A program made the position numbers and the translations under genes. Shown here piece after piece: positions 3,987-35,522 of a stretch of DNA of 48,613 bases. The stretch lies in the sequence record NC_049828.1; one strand, given 5' to 3'. Positions within the stretch are counted from its first letter, which is position 1. The number at the start of each line of letters is the position of its first letter. Under the pieces are notes generated by a model, which saw only the letters and a list, made by a program, of their open reading frames with translations, searched no databases and had not been told where the DNA came from. Source of the stretch: Escherichia phage haarsle.

Positions 3987-4030
3987 TAGCACTTTTTGTT
4001 AAAACTTCCGCGAGGGCATTTGTTAAAGTG
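3986..4030 (+). promoter_or_regulatory. Promoter-like module P4 (20-mer present, -10 not obvious, partial duplication TTGTTAAAG)
   Basis: 20-mer at 3986-4005 overlapping the TAA stop; leader GAAGCGAAACAGAGGAAAG. Confidence 0.45.
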
Positions 4031-4549: not shown

Positions 4550-4860
4550 TTTACATTCACTACTACCAGATCGGGACAAACGAAAACAAGCAGGAGCGCA
4601 GAGCAATTTGTGACACGCTCGACGATGCAAAAGCACAGCAACGCGTTTTGGGTGGCGTAATTCAGGCTTTTGAGCCAGTTCAAGACATAGAGCACCGAGA
4701 GCATTTGAAAGAGATTGTTGTTGATGAAATTTCATCACTAATCGACGACATGACAAATCACGGGCCTGGTTCTCCGTGGGAAGAAGCCGGATCGACGGAG
4801 TGGGATTGCGCTAAAGTTGCAACGCTTAACAACTTTCGTGAGTTGCTCGACGATTTTTAA
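4546..4860 (+). CDS. hypothetical acidic protein (104 aa)
   Basis: ORF with ATGA overlap to the upstream gene. Confidence 0.55.
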   Translation: MIYIHYYQIGTNENKQERRAICDTLDDAKAQQRVLGGVIQAFEPVQDIEHREHLKEIVVDEISSLIDDMTNHGPGSPWEEAGSTEWDCAKVATLNNFRELLDDF

Positions 4861-5059: not shown

Positions 5060-5289
5060 TGTTTGGAATGAACGAGGCACAATTCAACGCTGCAAAACGC
5101 CAGGCTAAGAAGTGCGGCGAGGCAATGAAAGCGGATGTTGAAAAGCGCGGAAAGTATGTTGATGAAGTTATGAAGGGCATTATTGCCGAACATTATCAGC
5201 CAGTTGCGCCAATGCTGACAATTACCCAATTCATCTGGTTATGTGGTTATCTTCGTGGGCGATGGGGAAACGCATTTGACCGCGAATGA
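5059..5289 (+). CDS. hypothetical protein (76 aa)
   Basis: ORF, coupled start. Confidence 0.5.
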   Translation: MFGMNEAQFNAAKRQAKKCGEAMKADVEKRGKYVDEVMKGIIAEHYQPVAPMLTITQFIWLCGYLRGRWGNAFDRE

Positions 5290-22166: not shown

Positions 22167-25100
22167 ATGGCTGAAAATATGATAACTGGCAGTAAGGGTG
22201 GATCATCAAAACCTTATGTTCCAAAAGAGATGGAAGATAACCTGATCTCAATCAATAAAATCAAAATCCTTCTTGCAGTTTCCGATGGCGAGTGCGATCC
22301 AGATTTTACACTTCGCGATCTGTATCTTGATGATGTTCCGGTAATTGCAGACGACGGAACTGTTAACTACCAGGGCGTGAGCGCAGAGTTTCGCCCAGGC
22401 ACACAGACTCAAGATTACATCCAGGGATTTACTGACACATCAAGCGAAGTGACGCTGGCGCGTGATATTACTACATCAAATCCTTATGTGATTTCCGTAA
22501 CCAACAAAACATTATCTGCTATCAGAATCAAAATGCTAATGCCAACAGGCATTAAGCAAGAGGATAACGGCGATCTTGTCGGCGTTAAGGTTACTTATGC
22601 TGTTGACATGGCTGTTGACGGAGACTCTTACAAAGAAGTATTGCGAGACACTATCGAAGGTAAAACGCGTTCAGGTTACGACAGAAGCAGAAGGATTGAC
22701 CTTCCGGCATTTAATGATCGCGTATTACTTAGGGTTAGAAGGGTTACGGCAGACAGCACATCTTCTCGTGTTACTGATCTGATTAAGCTACAAAGTTACG
22801 CTGAGGTTATTGATGCAAAATTCCGTTATCCTCTGACTGGTCTTGTATACGTTGAATTTGACAGTGAGCTATTCCCTAACCAGATCCCAAATATTTCAAT
22901 CAAGAAAAAGTGGAAACTGATTAATGTGCCAAGCAACTATGATCCTGTATCTCGTGAGTATAGAGGTTCATGGGATGGAACATTCAAAAAAGCCTGGTCA
23001 AACAATCCAGCATGGGTGCTTTACGACATCATTACAAATCAGCGTTATGGATTAGATCAGAGAGAGCTTGGTGTACAGGTTGACAAATGGAGTCTTTACG
23101 AAGCGGCGCAATACTGCGATCAGAAAGTGCCGGACGGAAAAGGCGGCACAGAGCCGCGTTATCTATGCGACGTTGTGATTCAAAGCCAGATTGAGGCTTA
23201 TCAGCTTATTCGTGATATTTGCTCAATCTTCCGAGGCATGAGCTTTTGGAATGGGGAGAGCTTGTCAATCGTCATTGATAAGCCGCGCGATCCGTCGTAC
23301 ATCTTCACCAATGACAACGTTGTTGATGGTGATTTTCAGTACACAACAGCAAGCGAAAAGAGCATGTACACGCAGTGCAACGTGACGTTCGACGACGAAC
23401 AAAACATGTATCAACAGGACGTAGAGGGCGTATTCGACACCGAGGCAGCATTGCGCTTTGGATACAATCCTACAAGCATAACCGCGATCGGATGTACACG
23501 CAGGAGTGAGGCTAATCGGCGCGGTCGATGGATACTAAAAACAAACTTGCGCAGCACTACGGTAAACTTTGCTACTGGACTGGAAGGCATGATCCCATCA
23601 ATAGGTGATGTGATTGCTATTGCTGACAATTTTCACAGCAGCAACCTTAAATTAAACCTATCAGGGCGCGTGATGGAAGTTTCCGGCTTGCAGGTGTTCG
23701 TTCCGTTTAAGATTGACGCGCGACCAGGTGATTTCATTATCATCAACAAGCCTGACGGAAAGCCAGTTAAGCGCACAATCTCAAAAGTAAGCGGTGACGG
23801 AAAAACCATTGAGCTAAACATTGGGTTTGGGTTTGAAGTTAAGCCGGATACAGTTTTTGCAATCGACCGCACTGACATTGCGTTGCAGCAATATGTTGTA
23901 ACGAGTATCGGAAAAGGTGATGATGATGATGAATTTACATACTCCATCACGGCTGTTGAATATGACCCTAACAAATACGACGAGATTGATTACGGAGTAA
24001 ACATTGACGACAGACCAACTTCAATTGTCCAGCCTGACACGATGGCAGCACCGGAAAACGTGCAAATATCCTCATACTCGCGAATTGTCCAGGGTGCAAG
24101 CGTTGAAACAATGGTTGTGTCGTGGGATAAAGTACCTTACGCATCGCTGTATGAAATGCAATGGCGAAAAGGCGATGGCAACTGGCTGAATACGCCGCAG
24201 ACAGCTAACAAAGAGATAGAGGTAGAAGGGATTTACTCAGGGAACTATCAAGTAAGGGTTAGATCTGTTTCTGCGAGTGGGAACACTTCCCCGTGGTCAA
24301 AGATTGCAACCGCCACACTGACAGGTAAAGTTGGCGAGCCAGGAGCGCCGATTAATCTTACAGCTTCTGATAATGAAGTTTTTGGCATTCGTGTTAAGTG
24401 GGGGATGCCAGAAGGGAGCGGAGACACGGCATACATTGAGCTTCATCAGTCGCCGGATGGAACGGCTGAAAACTCAAGCCTGCTAACGCTGATCCCGTAT
24501 CCACAATATGAATACTGGCATGGAACGCTTCCGGCTGGTCATGTTGTATGGTATCGGATCAGGAGCGTAGACAGGATCGGCAACGTTTCCGGTTGGACTG
24601 ATTTTGTTAGAGGTATGGCTTCAGATGATGTGGAGGCTGTTTTAGGAGATATTCTTGATAAGATTTTTGATACTGAAGCAGGTCAGGATCTGAAAGAGAA
24701 CGCCATTGACAGTGCAAACAAGATAAAGGACCAGGCGCAAAGCATCATTCAAAACGCATTAGCGAATGATACTGACGTTAGGATTATGAGGAAGGAAAAC
24801 GGCAAGCGCAAAGCCGAGTTTAGGCAATCAATCCAATTGATCGCAAATGAAACTGAAGCGCGCGTCACCGCAATGACTCAACTAAAGGCTGAATTTGACG
24901 AGGAGATAACTAGCGAAGTAACGAGACTTGATCAGGCAATTGCAACAGAATCGGAAACGCGAGCCACAGCCATTGAGGAATTGAAATCACAGATTGGAGA
25001 TGATATTCAGGGGCAATTAACGAGAGTTGAGGAGGCGATTGCAAGCGAAACAGAGGCGCGCGTTTCGGCTGATACAGCATTAACAGCGAAGTTTGGAGAT

Positions 25101-25592
25101 GTTGAATCAGCGCTGACTGAGAAACTTGATTCATGGGCTGGCGTTAATGGAGTTGGCGCACAGTACGCAATGAAACTTGGATTGACATACAACGGGCAGA
25201 AGTACAGCGCCGGAATGGTCATGCAGTTATCAAACAGCAATCAAGGGTTGATCTCACAAATCCTGTTTGATGCTGGCAGATTTGCGATCATGACGAGTTC
25301 TACTGGAGGATCGTATACATTGCCTTTTGTGGTAGAAAATAACCAAGTTTTCATTAACAGCCTGTTAGTAAAAGACGGTTCAATCACAAATGCTATGATC
25401 GGTAATTATATTCAGTCGAATAACTTTGTTGCTAATCAGCAGGGGTGGAGGCTGGATAAAAACGGCAGACTTGAGAACTACGGATCAACTCCAGGAGAGG
25501 GAGCTACTAAATTCACCAACGAAGGATTGAAGGTAAAAGATGCAAACGGAGTATTGAGGGTTGAACTCGGAAGGATTACCGGAAGCTGGTAA
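22167..25592 (+). CDS. tail tip/central fibre host-specificity protein (lambda J-like, 1141 aa)
   Basis: Length and position after the I-like gene; TATAAT at 22125-22130 and a partial AAATAGCAC element upstream. Confidence 0.85.
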   Translation: MAENMITGSKGGSSKPYVPKEMEDNLISINKIKILLAVSDGECDPDFTLRDLYLDDVPVIADDGTVNYQGVSAEFRPGTQTQDYIQGFTDTSSEVTLARDITTSNPYVISVTNKTLSAIRIKMLMPTGIKQEDNGDLVGVKVTYAVDMAVDGDSYKEVLRDTIEGKTRSGYDRSRRIDLPAFNDRVLLRVRRVTADSTSSRVTDLIKLQSYAEVIDAKFRYPLTGLVYVEFDSELFPNQIPNISIKKKWKLINVPSNYDPVSREYRGSWDGTFKKAWSNNPAWVLYDIITNQRYGLDQRELGVQVDKWSLYEAAQYCDQKVPDGKGGTEPRYLCDVVIQSQIEAYQLIRDICSIFRGMSFWNGESLSIVIDKPRDPSYIFTNDNVVDGDFQYTTASEKSMYTQCNVTFDDEQNMYQQDVEGVFDTEAALRFGYNPTSITAIGCTRRSEANRRGRWILKTNLRSTTVNFATGLEGMIPSIGDVIAIADNFHSSNLKLNLSGRVMEVSGLQVFVPFKIDARPGDFIIINKPDGKPVKRTISKVSGDGKTIELNIGFGFEVKPDTVFAIDRTDIALQQYVVTSIGKGDDDDEFTYSITAVEYDPNKYDEIDYGVNIDDRPTSIVQPDTMAAPENVQISSYSRIVQGASVETMVVSWDKVPYASLYEMQWRKGDGNWLNTPQTANKEIEVEGIYSGNYQVRVRSVSASGNTSPWSKIATATLTGKVGEPGAPINLTASDNEVFGIRVKWGMPEGSGDTAYIELHQSPDGTAENSSLLTLIPYPQYEYWHGTLPAGHVVWYRIRSVDRIGNVSGWTDFVRGMASDDVEAVLGDILDKIFDTEAGQDLKENAIDSANKIKDQAQSIIQNALANDTDVRIMRKENGKRKAEFRQSIQLIANETEARVTAMTQLKAEFDEEITSEVTRLDQAIATESETRATAIEELKSQIGDDIQGQLTRVEEAIASETEARVSADTALTAKFGDVESALTEKLDSWAGVNGVGAQYAMKLGLTYNGQKYSAGMVMQLSNSNQGLISQILFDAGRFAIMTSSTGGSYTLPFVVENNQVFINSLLVKDGSITNAMIGNYIQSNNFVANQQGWRLDKNGRLENYGSTPGEGATKFTNEGLKVKDANGVLRVELGRITGSW

Positions 25593-29897: not shown

Positions 29898-29922
29898 CAA
29901 AGGGGCATTACGCCCCTTTTTC
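29898..29922. terminator. Bidirectional terminator (AGGGGC atta GCCCCT, T5)
   Basis: Hairpin between convergent SSB and the leftward block. Confidence 0.7.
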
Positions 29923-30165
29923 ACTTTCAGCCACTCCAAGCACGGCAATAACCTTGACAGCAATTCGCTTTGCAAGTTCAGTTTGATTCGCGTTCAGCTT
30001 TCCGGTGGTCATTATTGACAACATTCCGCTCATACTTCCAAGCCCGTTAAAATCTGACATTGCCGATTTCATGATTGATATTGGTGAATGACCTTCATCA
30101 GCTATTGTGTGCGCTCTCTCTGACAGGTCTTTAACTACCTGATCTATTCCTTCACTTTTCGTCAT
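29908..30165 (-). CDS. hypothetical protein (85 aa)
   Basis: ORF with RBS AAGGAAAAG. Confidence 0.5.
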   Translation of the reverse strand: MTKSEGIDQVVKDLSERAHTIADEGHSPISIMKSAMSDFNGLGSMSGMLSIMTTGKLNANQTELAKRIAVKVIAVLGVAESEKGA

Positions 30166-30643
30166 TTACTTTTCCTTCAGGAGTTGATTGCTGTTCTGGC
30201 ATTACAGGCCACGGGCTAATTGATTCCCTTTCTGCTACTGGTTTTTCAGGTTCAATGCCTAAAAACTTTCCTACAAACTCACCAACAAAATTTGAACTAT
30301 CGCTTACATAAACATGCATTCTGTCAAGATCTGCAACTGTAACGCTATTTGGTGCGATCATAATTCGCTGTTGGTGAAAACCGATATACATCACATTTGC
30401 CGGACGCTCAATAGTCCCCATATTTGGCGCAATTACGCCCATTATCCAACAATAATGAATGTTGCCATCAAGCGGTTCACATCCAGCGTTAAGCCAGTTT
30501 ACTTTCTGGTGAGGAAACGCCATTGATGAATCAGTAGCATCACGCCGCAACGACCATTTAACGCCGCCAATCTCAATGATTTGTTTTGGCCTCATTCCGT
30601 TGAATTGAGTCACGCCAGCGCCATTTTGATTAATGTTTTGCAT
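30152..30643 (-). CDS. hypothetical protein (163 aa)
   Basis: ORF with RBS GGTGA. Confidence 0.5.
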   Translation of the reverse strand: MQNINQNGAGVTQFNGMRPKQIIEIGGVKWSLRRDATDSSMAFPHQKVNWLNAGCEPLDGNIHYCWIMGVIAPNMGTIERPANVMYIGFHQQRIMIAPNSVTVADLDRMHVYVSDSSNFVGEFVGKFLGIEPEKPVAERESISPWPVMPEQQSTPEGKVNDEK

Positions 30644-30657
30644 ATCGGTTCACCTTG

Positions 30658-30981
30658 TTACATTGATTTCATTTTACGCAATGCGCAGATACAAGCGGCA
30701 GCAAGATCGGTTAATTCTTTCTCAATGCCATGATGCGAGCCGTCTGCCTTTTCGGTCATTAGCTCTTTGTATTCCATTTCTACAATCGACATTAAGCCAC
30801 CTGGCTTGTCAATGTGCGCGTCCCATGTTTTAGGATAGTGTTTAGTTCTTTCAATAACACTTCCCATAACTGCATCATGTTCATGATCTCGATCATAATC
30901 TCTATCATGGACATTCCCTCCAATTACCACTCGCGGCAAATGCACGCGCGGTAAATGATAGCCAGCGACACGAATTTTCAT
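30658..30981 (-). CDS. hypothetical His/Asp-rich protein (107 aa); tentatively MazG-like NTP pyrophosphohydrolase
   Basis: EMEYKEL...EKELTDLAAACICAL is loosely MazG-like; weak. Confidence 0.3.
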   Translation of the reverse strand: MKIRVAGYHLPRVHLPRVVIGGNVHDRDYDRDHEHDAVMGSVIERTKHYPKTWDAHIDKPGGLMSIVEMEYKELMTEKADGSHHGIEKELTDLAAACICALRKMKSM

Positions 30982-30993
30982 GAGTATATCCCC

Positions 30994-31020
30994 TTATAAA
31001 AAAGCGCCCCGAAAGGCGCT
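30994..31020 (-). terminator. Intrinsic terminator on the minus strand (AGCGCC ccgaaa GGCGCT, T6)
   Basis: Hairpin preceded by A6 on the plus strand, i.e. a T-run on the minus strand. Confidence 0.7.
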
Positions 31021-31027
31021 TGATTTA

Positions 31028-31732
31028 TTAGCAACCACAGCAACCAGTCGGCGGAGTCGCCGGAGTTGGTAGCTTGAAGTTTACCAGTTGATTGACTTGG
31101 TTGATTTTGCAGTTGAGTTCCGAAGTCTGCTTCTCTTGAGAAAGAGCAAAGCGCGCTTCCTGCAACTGAGCTTTCATATCGCAAATCAAAACAGCCTGAG
31201 AATCAGCAAACTGTTGGCGCATCAGATCTCGCGTTGCATTGCCTTGTCGCTCAATATTCAGGTTTGTCTCACAGCAACATCTCTCCGCTGCAATCTGTGC
31301 CTGATAGGAACGCTCAAGAGCATTAACATCAGCAGCATTAATCGCAGCAACTGTTTGGTTAGTACCGCTAACAATCGCGGTATTCAGTCCGGCGAAACCT
31401 TGCACCGATGCAAGCAGGTTTTGCGTATTCTGGCTGGTAATGCCGTTAAAGGTTGATGCGGCGGAGCGCTCAACGGTAAGGTTTGTGGAGTTTTGGCCTT
31501 GCAGAGTTTGCAGCCCCAGGTTGTTTACGCCTGTCTGGATGTTATTAATACCATCAAGAACAGCGTTAGCACCGACAGCAACAGCCGCACCATCACCACC
31601 ATAACCACCACGACCATTAAAGCCGTTACCAAACCATGACCCAATCAGGCCGCCAACAGCACCGCCAAGACCAGCCGCGCCAGCTTCGCCACCAAAACCA
31701 CCACCAGTAGGGAGTAAAGTCATATCTGACAT
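31028..31732 (-). CDS. Gly-rich / Gln-Asn-rich protein with C-terminal CCGC cysteine cluster (234 aa)
   Basis: Start at MSDM with RBS AAGAGG; composition read from the translation; immediately downstream of the tail fibre gene. Confidence 0.5.
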   Translation of the reverse strand: MSDMTLLPTGGGFGGEAGAAGLGGAVGGLIGSWFGNGFNGRGGYGGDGAAVAVGANAVLDGINNIQTGVNNLGLQTLQGQNSTNLTVERSAASTFNGITSQNTQNLLASVQGFAGLNTAIVSGTNQTVAAINAADVNALERSYQAQIAAERCCCETNLNIERQGNATRDLMRQQFADSQAVLICDMKAQLQEARFALSQEKQTSELNCKINQVNQLVNFKLPTPATPPTGCCGC

Positions 31733-31867
31733 AGTAAATTCCTCTTTGACGTTAAAAAAAATTAAAAAAGTTTGCAACATTTATGTTACGACAAAGAGTA
31801 TGCGCCCAATTACCAGGAATAGATATGAAACATTTGTAAGCGATATGTCAGCAAATGGCATAAAGAC

Positions 31868-31895
31868 GAAAAAAGGCGCAGCCGTAGCCGCGCCT
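31868..31895 (-). terminator. Minus-strand terminator (GGCGC..GCGCC, T-run)
   Basis: Hairpin with a plus-strand A-run upstream, after the tail fibre gene. Confidence 0.6.
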
Positions 31896-31910
31896 TGTGA
31901 TTATTTTTTG

Positions 31911-33962
31911 TTAACTTTCCAGCGTTGTTGGCTTGTCGAGTAACGCCGCCACCGCCTCTTTGAGATCTGCAATTTCAGATTTAAGTGTTTCGATCTCCTC
32001 TTGTTGCTTGTCAACTTTTGCCTTTTGCTCTTTGAATGCGTTAACCAAAAGAGCCACAACTCCATTATAGTTAATTCCTTTGATTGACTCACCTTTTGGA
32101 TCTAATCCCCCATCATTGTTTAAAGAGTGAACAGCTTCCGGCAAAACCCTTTCAACATCTTGAGCGATCAATCCAGCCTCAATGCTATAAACGCTGTTTT
32201 CATCTTCTATAAGATTATTGCGCTTGTAGTAAGTATAACCAGTTAGATAATCAATTTTGTCGGATGCCGTTTCAATCTCTGTTAGTTGCGCTTTCATCCT
32301 TATGTCTGACGTAGAAATCCATTGGCTACAAGTAGCATTTCCAGCGCTATTGAAAATGAATTCACCACCCTTTACATAAAGGTGAGTTTCAGCGCCGCCA
32401 CCAGAAAAGCTAATGGCATCCATTCCAGCAATCCAATCATCACCCCAATGAACAACCTTGAATACGTTAAAGGCTGAGTCTTTTCCTGTAATCTCGCAAA
32501 GCAACCCACAACCACGATCACGCCAACCAGCAAAAGAGCCTCCCCCAATTTGACCGGCAATCATGGCACTTCCACCACCTGACCTAACGCCAGCAACCCT
32601 AATTGCATTATCATCAACAGGATATATGGTTAAACGACCATCAAAACGAATGTTTTGAGGAGAAAATGATGCAATACTTCCACCATTACAATAAACCTGC
32701 AATATTCCGTCACCGCCCCATTTAAAACCTGTATCATTATCTCCAATTGCTATTGAGTATTCACCAAGAGTATTTCCTTTTTCACCAGTAAGTTCAATTA
32801 TGTTATCGCTTCTAAAAACTCTTTTCCAACCACGCCAGTTACCGTTATCGCAAACATTTTCCCATTTGTTACCAGAGTGACCTGTTACTGAAAGAAGACC
32901 ATATAGCAATTTACTTTCATCACTAGTCTTTCCGTGAACATGTAAATTATACATCCACCAAGCGCCGACTTCCGGCAAACCTACAACGTCGCCACCAGAA
33001 GAATAATATCCGCTTTCTGGATTGTTTATAAAAAAACTGAGAATATCAGTCTTGTCAGCAAGTCCAACAGCCATATTACCAACAGGAATATTCAGGTTCT
33101 TTCTTGCTCCAGCTTCACTATTAGATCCAGTGCCTCCAGCATAAATTGGAAGAGGAATAAAACGTTGCAATGCGGTATCCCAGTAACCCCAATAATCGTT
33201 ACGAACTGTAAGGAATTTGATCTTATCCGGCGACTGAATAAACGTTTCGCCATCGGCCTGATTAAATCGGTCAACCTTCAATGCTTCCCTTGCAAGGTCT
33301 TTATTTTCCAGATCATTTAGGTTTTGATCTTTATGTAGCAGATTTTCAGCATTAAGGCTTTTGGCAAATTCTTCAGCCTCATTGCGCGCAGTAACAGCTC
33401 CGTTTTTTGCAGTTTCAGCGGCGCTATTTGCAGCCTGAGCGCCATTCATGTATTGCTGTGCGGAATCTCTTGCTGAAATAGCTTCGTTTTTCAGACTAGA
33501 AACATCACCCTTTATCTGTTGAGTGTCGTTTTTCAGTTGTTCAGTAGCAGCACGATCATTTGCCGTTTTCTCTGCATCGCCTTTAACCTGATTAGCCAGA
33601 TCTTGCAATTGTTTCAGGTCAAAGTTTTTGAAAAATTCAATAGCCTCCTCGATCTGAGTTTCTTTGCTTTGATAGTAACGCAGCGTTTCCGCAACATCTT
33701 GCGCCAGGCCGTCAACAGTGATTGAGTCATGCAGCAAAATAATGTAGTTGCTTCGCCCAATTTCTGCGCCGCCAGTTGTGATGGCGCGGATTTGTGTATC
33801 GCTGATAACTTCACTGATCACAGCCGCCTGAAAAGGAGCATCAATAAAAAAGATTGTTGCGCCAGGGCGAATGAGTGTTAGTTGTTCTCGCCATTTTGTG
33901 TCGTATCCAGTAATATAACCTTGCGCGTCCATTGACGCTTGTCCGGTTCTGTAAATTGCCAT
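31911..33962 (-). CDS. tail fibre protein with C-terminal intramolecular chaperone (peptidase S74-like) domain (683 aa)
   Basis: C-terminal TSDIRMK...YSIEAGLIAQDVERVLPEAV resembles self-cleaving fibre chaperone domains; start at MAIYRTG with RBS GGGAGA. Confidence 0.7.
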   Translation of the reverse strand: MAIYRTGQASMDAQGYITGYDTKWREQLTLIRPGATIFFIDAPFQAAVISEVISDTQIRAITTGGAEIGRSNYIILLHDSITVDGLAQDVAETLRYYQSKETQIEEAIEFFKNFDLKQLQDLANQVKGDAEKTANDRAATEQLKNDTQQIKGDVSSLKNEAISARDSAQQYMNGAQAANSAAETAKNGAVTARNEAEEFAKSLNAENLLHKDQNLNDLENKDLAREALKVDRFNQADGETFIQSPDKIKFLTVRNDYWGYWDTALQRFIPLPIYAGGTGSNSEAGARKNLNIPVGNMAVGLADKTDILSFFINNPESGYYSSGGDVVGLPEVGAWWMYNLHVHGKTSDESKLLYGLLSVTGHSGNKWENVCDNGNWRGWKRVFRSDNIIELTGEKGNTLGEYSIAIGDNDTGFKWGGDGILQVYCNGGSIASFSPQNIRFDGRLTIYPVDDNAIRVAGVRSGGGSAMIAGQIGGGSFAGWRDRGCGLLCEITGKDSAFNVFKVVHWGDDWIAGMDAISFSGGGAETHLYVKGGEFIFNSAGNATCSQWISTSDIRMKAQLTEIETASDKIDYLTGYTYYKRNNLIEDENSVYSIEAGLIAQDVERVLPEAVHSLNNDGGLDPKGESIKGINYNGVVALLVNAFKEQKAKVDKQQEEIETLKSEIADLKEAVAALLDKPTTLES

Positions 33963-34020
33963 GCGGTTTCTCCCGTGTTGCATGTTAATGTCAATGCAGA
34001 TAATAGCATTTGCTAAGGCA

Positions 34021-34043
34021 AAAAAAAACCCCGCAATGCGGGG
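34021..34043 (-). terminator. Minus-strand intrinsic terminator (CCCCGC aat GCGGGG, T8)
   Basis: Perfect stem with A8 on the plus strand. Confidence 0.8.
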
Positions 34044-34060
34044 CAAAGTAGCAGTGACAT

Positions 34061-34993
34061 TTAGAGAAGTGATTCAGGTTTGTAAACCTTCCTCTCTATC
34101 CCTTTCCTGTAATTATCATTAATCGGCATCATAATTTCAAGTCCTCTTTCCTCGGCAGCAATGATCGCGTCACGGTCTGTACTCTTACAGACAACTCTCA
34201 TTCTTCTGTTTCCCTTATACCTGTAAGCCACAATCTCAATGTTAGTTGCATCAAAGCAGGCCCAAACCTCTTGACCAGTTGCAAGGTGAATATGTTGCGC
34301 ATCAATCCAGTCAACGCAAAGATAGATCGTCTTATCTGTGCTTCCTGTTCTCACAACAGACCCGCGCGTGTAGTCCTTTGCGAGAAAAGACTGTTTACCC
34401 TCTTCATCAATGAAAAGCACATTGCACATTTCATCATCAATATCATCGGAATGCACCAGGTAACATGGTAACGCGTGAATGTATCGACCATCTTTAACGC
34501 CGCATTCATAATAACCATCTTCAGGAGGATATATCCCTTCATAGGAGCTTAACGGCGTGCGATCAAATTTTAGTGTTTTTGACATAACGCGCTCGCAGCA
34601 TTCATGGCTTGCCTGTTTCCCAAACGAATAACCAGAATCACGAGACACTCGCTTATTTGCCTTAATTCTATAGTCCTGCGGAACTTTTCCAAGAAAGCGA
34701 CCCAAAATATTGATCACTTCGCTGTAAGGTTCTCCGGTTAGCTTCATGATCCAACCGATTCCAGTATCGTTTCCGCACACGTTGCAGATAGCGCCGCCGT
34801 CGCCTTTTTTATCTCCAAGTTTATCCGTCCATCTAAAGCGATCCTTTCCGCCGCAGTGGGGGCAAGATTGATGCTTGCCGTTAAAAACTTCATTTGGAAG
34901 ACCGCAAATACTTTGTAGCGCCTCACGCCATAATCCCTGCATATATGGGAGAACATCTTCCTTTTGATAAACCATAAAGTTTTCGTTGTTCAT
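34061..34993 (-). CDS. DNA primase (zinc-ribbon CPHCGGKDRF plus Toprim-like region, 310 aa)
   Basis: Primase-type zinc-binding motif; start at MNNENF with RBS GAGG. Confidence 0.7.
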   Translation of the reverse strand: MNNENFMVYQKEDVLPYMQGLWREALQSICGLPNEVFNGKHQSCPHCGGKDRFRWTDKLGDKKGDGGAICNVCGNDTGIGWIMKLTGEPYSEVINILGRFLGKVPQDYRIKANKRVSRDSGYSFGKQASHECCERVMSKTLKFDRTPLSSYEGIYPPEDGYYECGVKDGRYIHALPCYLVHSDDIDDEMCNVLFIDEEGKQSFLAKDYTRGSVVRTGSTDKTIYLCVDWIDAQHIHLATGQEVWACFDATNIEIVAYRYKGNRRMRVVCKSTDRDAIIAAEERGLEIMMPINDNYRKGIERKVYKPESLL

Positions 34994-35005
34994 ATGCACC
35001 TCAAA

Positions 35006-35046
35006 CAAAAAAGCCTGACAGATGATAACATCATGCCAGGCATTGT
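35006..35046 (-). terminator. Terminator-like hairpin (GCCTG..CAGGC with flanking A/T runs)
   Basis: Inverted repeat with a long loop. Confidence 0.4.
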
Positions 35047-35048
35047 TT

Positions 35049-35522
35049 TTAGCAATTAGTGCTTTCAGGTTTATACAGGAATCCGCCAGGCTCATAATCT
35101 GACATTCTTACCACTCGCAACATTTCACGCTTATCACATCTCTTTGTGAGCGGTTTGCCATTGGAATCAAATCGCAGGTCTGGGCGGCAGAATGATGCGC
35201 GATAGCCTTGACATCCATATTTTTTGTAATCGTTATGCACCTTTTGAGCGCCAGCGGCTGAAATCATACCGCGAACACGCCACTGATTTACAGTTTGCTG
35301 GCTAACGTTAAGACGTTTTGCCATTGCTGACACACTTCCGTAATACTCAATAAGGATGTCAAGACGTGCTTTTAGTCCGGCGCGCACTTCATCTTTTAGT
35401 ACATAATATCCTGTAGGGCGCTTGCGTTTCTTCTTATCCTTGCCTCGTCTGGTTCCGTTATTGCCATTAATTGTGCGCTTGTCAATCTTGCCAGTTGATA
35501 CTGCGATTCGCTGTTCTTTCAT
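35049..35522 (-). CDS. helix-turn-helix DNA-binding protein (157 aa)
   Basis: HTH-like segment AMAKRLNVSQQTVNQW and basic N-terminus; RBS GGAG. Confidence 0.55.
   Translation of the reverse strand: MKEQRIAVSTGKIDKRTINGNNGTRRGKDKKKRKRPTGYYVLKDEVRAGLKARLDILIEYYGSVSAMAKRLNVSQQTVNQWRVRGMISAAGAQKVHNDYKKYGCQGYRASFCRPDLRFDSNGKPLTKRCDKREMLRVVRMSDYEPGGFLYKPESTNC

Follow-up and report, generated by a model that had tools for sequence, protein, structure and literature searches.

A glycine-rich, cysteine-cluster protein encoded beside the lateral tail fibre gene of Escherichia phage haarsle: probable lead product of a mobile four-gene cassette

Escherichia phage haarsle (sequence record NC_049828.1) was analysed as one stretch of 48,613 nucleotides, here called the window, and the layout of its open reading frames (ORFs) suggests that these 48.6 kb approximate the whole genome of a T1-like phage. 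Positions 30900 to 34100, the stretch queried, are about 96% identical to Escherichia phage JakobBernoulli (Bas07, MZ501079; Drexlerviridae, Tempevirinae, Hanrivervirus). Beyond the rightward structural genes come RecE-like, Erf-like and SSB genes and then a leftward block holding, in coordinate order, genes for p85, p163, a 107-residue protein, a glycine-rich protein with cysteine clusters (hereafter the Gly-rich protein), a tail fibre, primase and a helix-turn-helix (HTH) protein (Table 1). The original prediction for this locus read correctly from the sequence a 683-residue fibre ORF on the minus strand, for which matches to PHROG tail-fibre families were found, and beside it a 234-residue ORF with a Gly-rich start, a Gln/Asn-rich middle and a C-terminal Cys cluster; it supposed the latter to encode a fibre-tip adhesin or accessory factor setting host range. 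Comparison with related phages indicates instead that the Gly-rich gene is most likely the lead gene of a conserved four-gene cassette and not part of the fibre.

Table 1. Coordinates of features discussed in the text, in order along the window
Feature	Position	Strand or direction	Basis or remarks
J-like tail-tip gene, last of the rightward structural genes	22167-25592	rightward	Followed by RecE-like, Erf-like and SSB genes
Cassette gene 4, p85, small protein	29908-30165	(-)	64% identical to Sasha gp10; phrog_7239
Cassette gene 3, p163	30152-30643	(-)	Beta-rich, without fold match; invariant His, Asp and Cys
Cassette gene 2, small helical protein, 107 aa	30658-30981	(-)	65% identical to Sasha gp08
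Terminator after the Gly-rich gene, within the cassette	31002-31021	(-)	8-bp stem, T-run; also annotated in Sasha and G29-2
Cassette gene 1, Gly-rich, Cys-cluster protein, 234 aa	31028-31732	(-)	phrog_9288, homologues, alignments, AlphaFold2 (AF2), hydropathy
Candidate cis element: -10-like CATACT (31802-31797) and palindrome GTAACATAAATGTTGC (31789-31774)	31774-31802	(-)	Conserved upstream of gene 1
Strong intrinsic terminator just 3' of the fibre gene	31873-31896	(-)	10-bp stem with 7 GC pairs, T-run; annotated in G29-2
Lateral tail fibre gene, 683 aa	31911-33962	(-)	PHROG tail-fibre families, best E = 4e-181
Peptidase_S74 intramolecular chaperone domain, fibre aa 552-683	31911-32309	(-)	Pfam PF13884
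Terminator-like hairpin in the primase/fibre gap	34028-34049	(-)	Terminator annotated at the equivalent site in G29-2
Primase gene	34061-35095	leftward	
HTH gene	35049-35522	leftward	

On the sequence evidence the Gly-rich ORF is a real gene, because it matches phrog_9288, a PHROG family without assigned function, over 234 of 234 profile positions (E = 1.5e-123) and because 231 homologues were found; the protein is a full member of that family and shows no differences from it. A good ribosome-binding site, AAAGAGGAATTTACTATG, precedes the start codon, and a longer 250-residue version starting from an ATG at 31780 is not supported, the conserved N-terminus being MSDMTLLP. This motif is followed by a hydrophobic glycine-zipper segment (residues ~17-35), a Gly/aromatic linker, a predicted helix, a Pro/Thr tail and a terminal GCCGC. 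Glycine accounts for 21 of the first 55 residues, with the pattern GxxxGxxxGxxxG occupying residues 23-35 of the segment GGAVGGLIGSWFG, and residues 56-140 are rich in N, A, T, L, G and Q, only 5 of the 85 being charged. The predicted helix (residues 51-218) is rich in N, Q, S and T and bears CCC152-154 and C184; further cysteines are C207 and those of the terminal GCCGC. The C-terminal cluster that had been remarked upon is thus present, but it is just one Cys feature of the protein, and the one that is invariant across the family is CCC(152-154)...C184. Monomer prediction with AF2 from 74 sequences returned one 168-residue helix at low confidence, too low for the model to be included in fold searching; a canonical coiled coil is not claimed, as the heptad a/d periodicity is weak.

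The three genes that follow the Gly-rich gene recur alongside it in other phages. Gene 2 has a conserved core, PxTW...(I/V)EMEYxEL...KELxDLAAA, containing the motifs MEY-EL and KEL-DLAAA, and gave no Pfam match; its profile matches PDB 2P06 (AF_0060), which we take to be a MazG-like all-alpha nucleoside triphosphate (NTP) pyrophosphatase, at E = 8e-4, partly via His-rich stretches. The homologue in phage KurtStettler is annotated as a "putative pyrophosphatase", and gene 2 probably belongs to the MazG-like all-alpha NTP-pyrophosphatase superfamily. Several gene 2 homologues (loci L004, 6049-6417, and L006, 5529-5894) carry His-rich low-complexity N-termini, such as HHHHHYHHGHH in Sasha, which, with the Cys clusters of gene 1, hints at metal handling. 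For p163, p85 and the distant members of the Gly-rich family, no significant sequence match was found in Pfam, NCBIfam, PADLOC or PDB.

Sashavirus carries all four genes in unchanged order as gp07-gp10, with amino acid identities of 63%, 65%, 68% and 64%. Its cassette is flanked by a homing endonuclease/TerL on one side and the portal gene on the other, and the 12-kb stretch examined has no annotated fibre gene. The cassette is also present in Seuratvirus (KurtStettler and SD04), in Edwardsiella phage eiAU (gp08-11) and, amid small leftward genes, in Yersinia phage PY100 (ORF29-32), in which genes 1, 3 and 4 were identified by homology and ORF30 occupies the position of gene 2, for which homology searches recovered nothing in that phage. 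In a 40-kb metagenomic phage contig (L010) all four genes can be recognised next to the lysis genes, gene 4 from its size and position alone, and the lead protein is 33% identical to that of haarsle. In the phage collection searched, the Gly-rich protein was found in 218 records and p163 in 138. Sorted by the first word of the organism name, the two counts (Gly-rich protein, then p163) run closely together in Escherichia (64 and 60), Yersinia (17 and 17), Shigella (6 and 6), Enterobacteria (6 and 6), Campylobacter (4 and 4), Edwardsiella (4 and 4), Klebsiella (3 and 3) and Enterobacter (3 and 3). The exception is Salmonella, with 103 and 27; the excess of ~76 records is attributed to T5-like phages that keep only decayed remnants of the Gly-rich gene. 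Among the records searched, ~140 deposited phages of several genera bear the cassette. It appears that neither the cassette nor its regulatory palindrome, nor the breadth of the protein family described below, has an earlier description in the literature searched.

It had been proposed that the fibre is transcribed leftward together with primase and the HTH gene; all do lie on the minus strand, but co-transcription is not evident, because terminator-like structures separate primase from fibre and fibre from the Gly-rich gene. The terminator predicted to follow the Gly-rich gene was confirmed, and it probably attenuates the three downstream cassette genes. Its recurrence after gene 1 in Sasha and G29-2 suggests that more of the gene 1 product is made than of the products of genes 2-4. 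In five phages of four genera (haarsle, G29-2, Sasha, eiAU and SD04), gene 1 is preceded by a -10-like box, (C/T)AT(A/T/G)CT, which is followed after ~7-8 nt by a palindrome, GTAAC-N6-GTT(A/G)C, whose sixth stem pair is changed from A-U to C-G across phages and is U-G in the window. This element is a candidate promoter with operator, or a candidate hairpin of the 5' untranslated region. Among the loci compared, it lies at L004 (about 5230-5260), L006 (about 4765-4795) and L007 (about 4745-4775). A genome-wide repeat comparable to the 21-mers of phage TLS was considered and rejected, as the 26-nt sequence that holds the palindrome has a single occurrence in the window; the degenerate form GTAAC-N6-GTTAC, with one mismatch allowed, has 2 matches there, within chance expectation. 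A generic sigma-70 scan gave no consensus promoter at the element or elsewhere between the two terminators.

The neighbouring ORF is the lateral tail fibre gene of a Hanrivervirus (T1-like, Drexlerviridae). Its product consists of a conserved virion-attachment N-terminus (residues 1-176), which matches the N-terminus of three PDB "Depolymerase" chains (7VYV, 7VZ3 and 7LZJ; E = 1e-50), a coiled-coil shaft, a distal receptor-binding part and a C-terminal chaperone. The intramolecular chaperone-like domain of the original prediction is borne out by a Pfam Peptidase_S74 match at residues 552-612 (41.9 bits against a gathering score of 22, E = 1.3e-10). The domain opens with SDIRMK, in which the putative catalytic and cleavage residues Ser552 and Lys557 are five residues apart (Ser-x4-Lys), and closes with a C-terminal helix; the S-D-x3-K motif is also found in the fibres of KurtStettler, G29-2 and polluks. 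Residues 539-671 additionally match PDB 6F45_A, "Long tail fiber distal subunit" (E = 6e-21), presumably the S16 gp37 tip. By analogy with other S74-bearing fibres, the domain would aid folding of the fibre trimer and then self-cleave at Ser552, which would leave a mature fibre of about 551 residues.

The location of the fibre gene within the replication block, away from the tail module, had been singled out; the position is as described but is not unusual, being the family-wide Drexlerviridae layout. The T1 fibre gene, ST26, is a minus-strand gene flanked by the SSB-like ST27 and the primase gene ST24, and in TLS an SSB (Gp54), a structural protein of 78 kDa with a relationship to the T5 L-shaped fibre (Gp55) and primase (Gp56) are consecutive. 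In all 13 BASEL Drexlerviridae, conserved recombination and primase/helicase genes flank the lateral-fibre locus, and conservation of the fibre gene itself is limited to its 5' end (PMC8594841, including the S1C Fig legend). A fibre gene placed between SSB and primase genes, on the strand opposite to the tail module, is thus the normal and already described T1-type arrangement. The N-terminal attachment region, coiled-coil shaft and S74 domain with its Ser/Lys motif are shared with T1 ST26, TLS Gp55, T5 pb1 (the L-shaped fibre) and the JakobBernoulli lateral tail fibre, bas07_0036. The last of these is 87% identical to the haarsle fibre, and identical over residues 1-120; apart from 58 residues missing from the repetitive shaft of the haarsle protein, around residues 143-151 (window 33435-33600), the two show no real difference. 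The fibre is therefore nothing new in kind, and in itself adds nothing new.

Comparison of the two neighbours across phages separates the Gly-rich protein from the fibre tip. The G29-2 Gly-rich protein is 99.6% identical to that of haarsle, yet the G29-2 fibre aligns only over residues 1-292 (62%), its distal part being unrelated although it also ends in an S74-like domain. In JakobBernoulli, the distal receptor-binding part of the fibre is ~97% identical to that of haarsle and codon 77 of the Gly-rich gene is changed from CAA to TAA (L001, about 4600). Among the BASEL Drexlerviridae, JakobBernoulli alone plates robustly on O16-restored K-12, a property credited by its authors to the lateral fibres (PMC8594841); because of the ~97% identity, haarsle may share this O16 specificity. 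The split gene is annotated in JakobBernoulli as two coding sequences, one of them a "putative sugar-binding protein", a label that is probably misleading. In phage PGN590 (NC_049830) a clean 1617-bp deletion, corresponding to window 30125-31741 and joined at a 9-bp microhomology (L089, about 4001-4009), takes out cassette genes 1-3 and the start of gene 4, while the adjacent fibre gene remains ~95% identical to that of haarsle. T1 and TLS lack the cassette altogether.

T5-like Epseptimavirus phages hold just stop-ridden Gly-rich fragments, directly 3' of their own S74 fibre gene, which suggests that the gene hitch-hiked into these phages during exchange of fibre 3' ends. In Salmonella phage polluks (L003, 5749-6423) a decayed copy, unaccompanied by the rest of the cassette, lies directly 3' of the T5-like lateral fibre gene, and many Epseptimavirus records contain an unannotated remnant of residues 146-199 only.

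These comparisons argue against a fibre-tip adhesin or host-range factor, as do cassettes at sites with no annotated fibre gene nearby. The likeness to gp38-type adhesins (T2/S16-like) consists of a glycine-rich composition and a gene placed after a fibre gene with a chaperone-like C-terminus, together with the match of the fibre's C-terminal region to 6F45_A. The glycine stretch of the haarsle protein is N-terminal, contiguous, hydrophobic and conserved, whereas gp38 has C-terminal glycine motifs split by hypervariable loops; unlike the gp38 type, the haarsle protein does not vary with the fibre tip, and a hydrophobic helix replaces its glycine stretch in distant homologues. Pfam GP38 did not match the Gly-rich protein even at E <= 5, and a profile search of PDB gave no adhesin. 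Likewise, no Pfam, PHROG-function or NCBIfam match was found to Tfa or gp57-type fibre assembly chaperones, and a need for such a chaperone is not apparent where the Gly-rich gene is broken or deleted and the same or a near-identical fibre is kept (JakobBernoulli, PGN590). What is left in favour of the adhesin idea is the frequent adjacency to S74 fibres and a single in-frame fusion in KurtStettler, considered below.

A profile search of 1.84 billion representative proteins placed the Gly-rich protein in a wider family of 132 clusters, mostly of 200-290 residues and sharing one common plan, a transmembrane (TM)-type segment plus CCC. The N-terminal part has a short acidic motif, M-[ST]-D-M-x-L-x-P, the hydrophobic glycine zipper and a Gly/aromatic/Arg linker (GWGNRG); the middle is a variable N/Q/S/T-rich region with "QGFAGLNTAI"-like repeats; and the C-domain reads GYExRLAT...CCC...ATRxLI...LCDAKxKIxxLExQ...SQAAQT, followed by a T/P/A tail. 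A proteobacterial-type and a putatively Firmicutes-type set were compared, the latter label (a large set of contigs of 55-60 kb) reflecting gene content and not taxonomic assignment. CCC is present in 97-100% of members, and a C-terminal Cys cluster in 51% of one set and 98% of the other. Where the glycine segment sits, the putatively Firmicutes-type homologues have a clearly hydrophobic helix, for example WLWIIVVFALLFGW, and the mean Kyte-Doolittle hydropathy of the N-terminal segment (KD17) is 1.78 in that set (87% at 1.6 or above) versus 1.33 in the proteobacterial-type set. The N-flank of the segment is acidic in both sets and the C-flank is positively charged in the proteobacterial-type set.

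Distant homologues in IMG/VR contigs of 40-60 kb (L019-L088; for example L026, 5303-10296), which to judge by gene content are probably from Firmicutes phages, belong to a conserved co-directional string of integrase, a Q/Y/P-rich protein, a 76-residue protein, the TM-CCC protein, a 150-residue protein, an acidic protein and an M78-like HExxH protein. Prophage accessory and superinfection-exclusion (Sie) genes are commonly located on this, the integrase, side of a genome. A database protein of 223 residues (P0122) matches Gly-rich profile positions 42-167 together with 42% of p163 and is probably another deletion fusion within the cassette; a related-locus search with P0127 gave nothing.

The reading favoured here, at a probability of roughly 0.55, takes the Gly-rich protein to be anchored in the membrane and to act in the infected cell, as the product of a mobile accessory operon of four genes that the phage can do without. 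The operon would run from its own promoter and palindrome through the Gly-rich gene, the internal terminator, the MazG-like small protein and p163 to p85, the Gly-rich gene being the first, and probably the most highly expressed, gene of a self-contained and horizontally mobile unit. Its product would most likely be a single-pass membrane protein, with the short acidic N-terminus probably outside the membrane, the GxxxG-type zipper acting as a self-associating anchor and the long polar helical domain probably in the cytoplasm. The glycine stretch is read as an anchor, and not as an adhesin motif, mainly because a hydrophobic helix holds the same position in the distant homologues. The charge bias of the flanks (N-flank, DE 1.49 and KR 0.30; C-flank, KR 0.81 and DE 0.44) hints at an N-out, C-in topology, which would leave the Cys clusters in the cytoplasm, where CCC...C and the C-terminal cluster could bind metal or might cross-link subunits. 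In Gram-positive bacteria cysteine tends to be scarce in exported proteins, consistent with cytoplasmic Cys clusters. The protein would thus act in the envelope of the infected cell and not in the virion; an accessory role at that level, such as excluding competing phages or protecting or modulating the membrane, possibly with the three partners, is a guess. The comparisons show the gene structure, the synteny of the cassette, its dispensability, the independence of the Gly-rich protein from the fibre tip and the architecture common to the family, whereas membrane insertion, topology, Cys chemistry and biological role are inferred.

Several observations weigh against this reading. The glycine zipper of haarsle is marginally hydrophobic for a transmembrane helix (KD19 = 1.13), and the AF2 monomer model is poor (predicted template-modelling score, pTM, 0.20) and establishes neither fold nor oligomeric state. 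The Gly-rich protein has no match in Pfam, NCBIfam, PADLOC or PDB, and homology thus assigns it no function. In the literature searched no virion proteome of a phage carrying the gene was found, the TLS study having used sodium dodecyl sulphate-polyacrylamide gel electrophoresis only for the virion proteins of a phage that lacks it. Lastly, the gene lies directly 3' of S74-type fibre genes in Drexlerviridae (Tempevirinae), Seuratvirus, Nonagvirus, Hafnia phage yong3 and T5-like phages, and this adjacency, with the KurtStettler fusion, could reflect function and not just position. A functional fusion would be difficult to square with an N-out topology.

The fusion is bas22_0024 of KurtStettler (MZ501091; L002, 4981-6513), an ORF of 510 residues in which a second fibre-like N-terminal part and S74 domain (Pfam E = 1e-14) are joined in frame to the Gly-rich protein from "...AGAAGIGGAIGG" onwards, precisely where the last helix of the chaperone would be expected to begin; the Gly-rich part starts after residue ~19 of the unfused protein, and the product is annotated as a "putative lateral tail fiber chaperone". 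Such a join is what might be expected if the Gly-rich protein assists assembly of S74 fibres or is a minor fibre component, for example a trimeric coiled-coil partner of the released chaperone or a distal decoration, with an indirect effect on host range. Adjacency to S74-bearing fibre genes in at least five phage lineages, the N/Q/S/T-rich composition, which resembles that of fibre shafts, and the possibility of read-through from the fibre gene in the absence of a consensus sigma-70 promoter between the two terminators all agree with such a role. It is nevertheless judged improbable. The Gly-rich protein does not covary with fibre tips; the cassettes of Sasha and PY100 are away from annotated fibre genes, and no fibre-sized ORF or S74 match lies near those of L009 and L010; the gene is lost or broken where the same or a similar fibre is kept (JakobBernoulli, PGN590 and the T5-like phages), and T1 and TLS have S74-type or similar fibres without it; and the distant homologues sit on the integrase side of their conserved string. 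The fusion itself was rejected as proof of a fibre function, being unique among 874 matching phage records, with two separate genes in all other listed phages that have both parts. Because it is unique and deletes the invariant MSDMTLLP N-terminus, it is read as another tolerated lesion. Fibre loci are recombination hot spots that gather accessory genes, which would explain the adjacency.

A second alternative places the protein in the virion as a membrane-penetration or pilot protein, its zipper inserting into the host envelope like the N-terminus of phiX174 H or the fusogenic part of T5 pb2, and its helix forming an oligomeric conduit. The single 168-residue helix predicted by AF2 would suit such a role, and the architecture seems to resemble that of phiX174 H, in which a hydrophobic, Gly-rich N-terminus precedes a very long polar helix. 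An ejection protein would be expected to be indispensable, however, whereas viable phages exist in which this gene is deleted, truncated or decayed, and T1 and TLS lack it; the protein is also encoded outside the structural modules with non-structural partners, and its heptad periodicity is weak. A pilot function is accordingly very unlikely.

Slightly less probable still is a bacteriocin- or microcin-like membrane toxin, or a lysis-timing factor, that depolarises cells and relies on its partners for maturation or immunity. The Gly/Ala-rich hydrophobic stretch of the protein seems to resemble class II microcins and glycine-zipper pore formers, and the L010 cassette adjoins lysis genes. The haarsle protein, at 234 residues, is far above microcin size; no double-glycine leader, exporter or immunity gene accompanies it, and the window has its own lysis genes elsewhere. 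The related suggestion of a link to colicin or microcin translocation domains found no family matches, and the neighbours are the MazG-like protein, p163 and p85.

Returning to the proposed membrane-anchored accessory protein, its N-terminal hydrophobic segment with GxxxG repeats is shared with glycine-zipper membrane proteins (pinholins, VacA and pore-forming toxins of type VI secretion systems), and its accessory, dispensable, moron-like placement with superinfection-exclusion proteins (T4 Imm, lactococcal Sie2009). The putatively Firmicutes-type homologues likewise occupy the integrase side of a conserved string whose last member is an M78-like gene, a frequent site of Sie genes. The Gly-rich protein differs from these zipper and exclusion proteins in having no sequence homology to them, a much larger size, a polar helical domain of 170 residues and Cys clusters, and in being encoded by a virulent phage.

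A more far-reaching proposal, offered tentatively, is that the unit from 31802 to 29908 is a previously undescribed mobile accessory system of enterobacterial siphophages, whose lead protein represents a broad unannotated family and a new envelope-level effector (exclusion, anti-defence or membrane metal chemistry). If so, the lead-protein family would span phages of Gram-negative and, putatively, Firmicutes hosts; accessory modules of this kind are the usual source of new functions in phage-host and phage-phage conflict. A more immediate consequence is a correction, in that the fibre-adjacent gene labelled "sugar-binding protein" or "fibre chaperone" in coliphages is probably no determinant of host range and should not be swapped or engineered as one. 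The natural knock-outs, namely the JakobBernoulli nonsense codon, the PGN590 deletion and the KurtStettler fusion, provide ready test material.

Two minor observations concern other annotations. The primase and HTH ORFs as listed overlap by 47 nt (35049-35095), and the real primase start is probably further downstream than listed, because the JakobBernoulli primase gene is annotated at 933 nt. Additionally, three records named as "Campylobacter phage" A16a, A15b and A118 (MG065636, MG065637 and MG065675) are ~95% identical to haarsle-type T1-like sequence, so that their "Campylobacter jejuni" host label looks doubtful and possibly reflects contamination.

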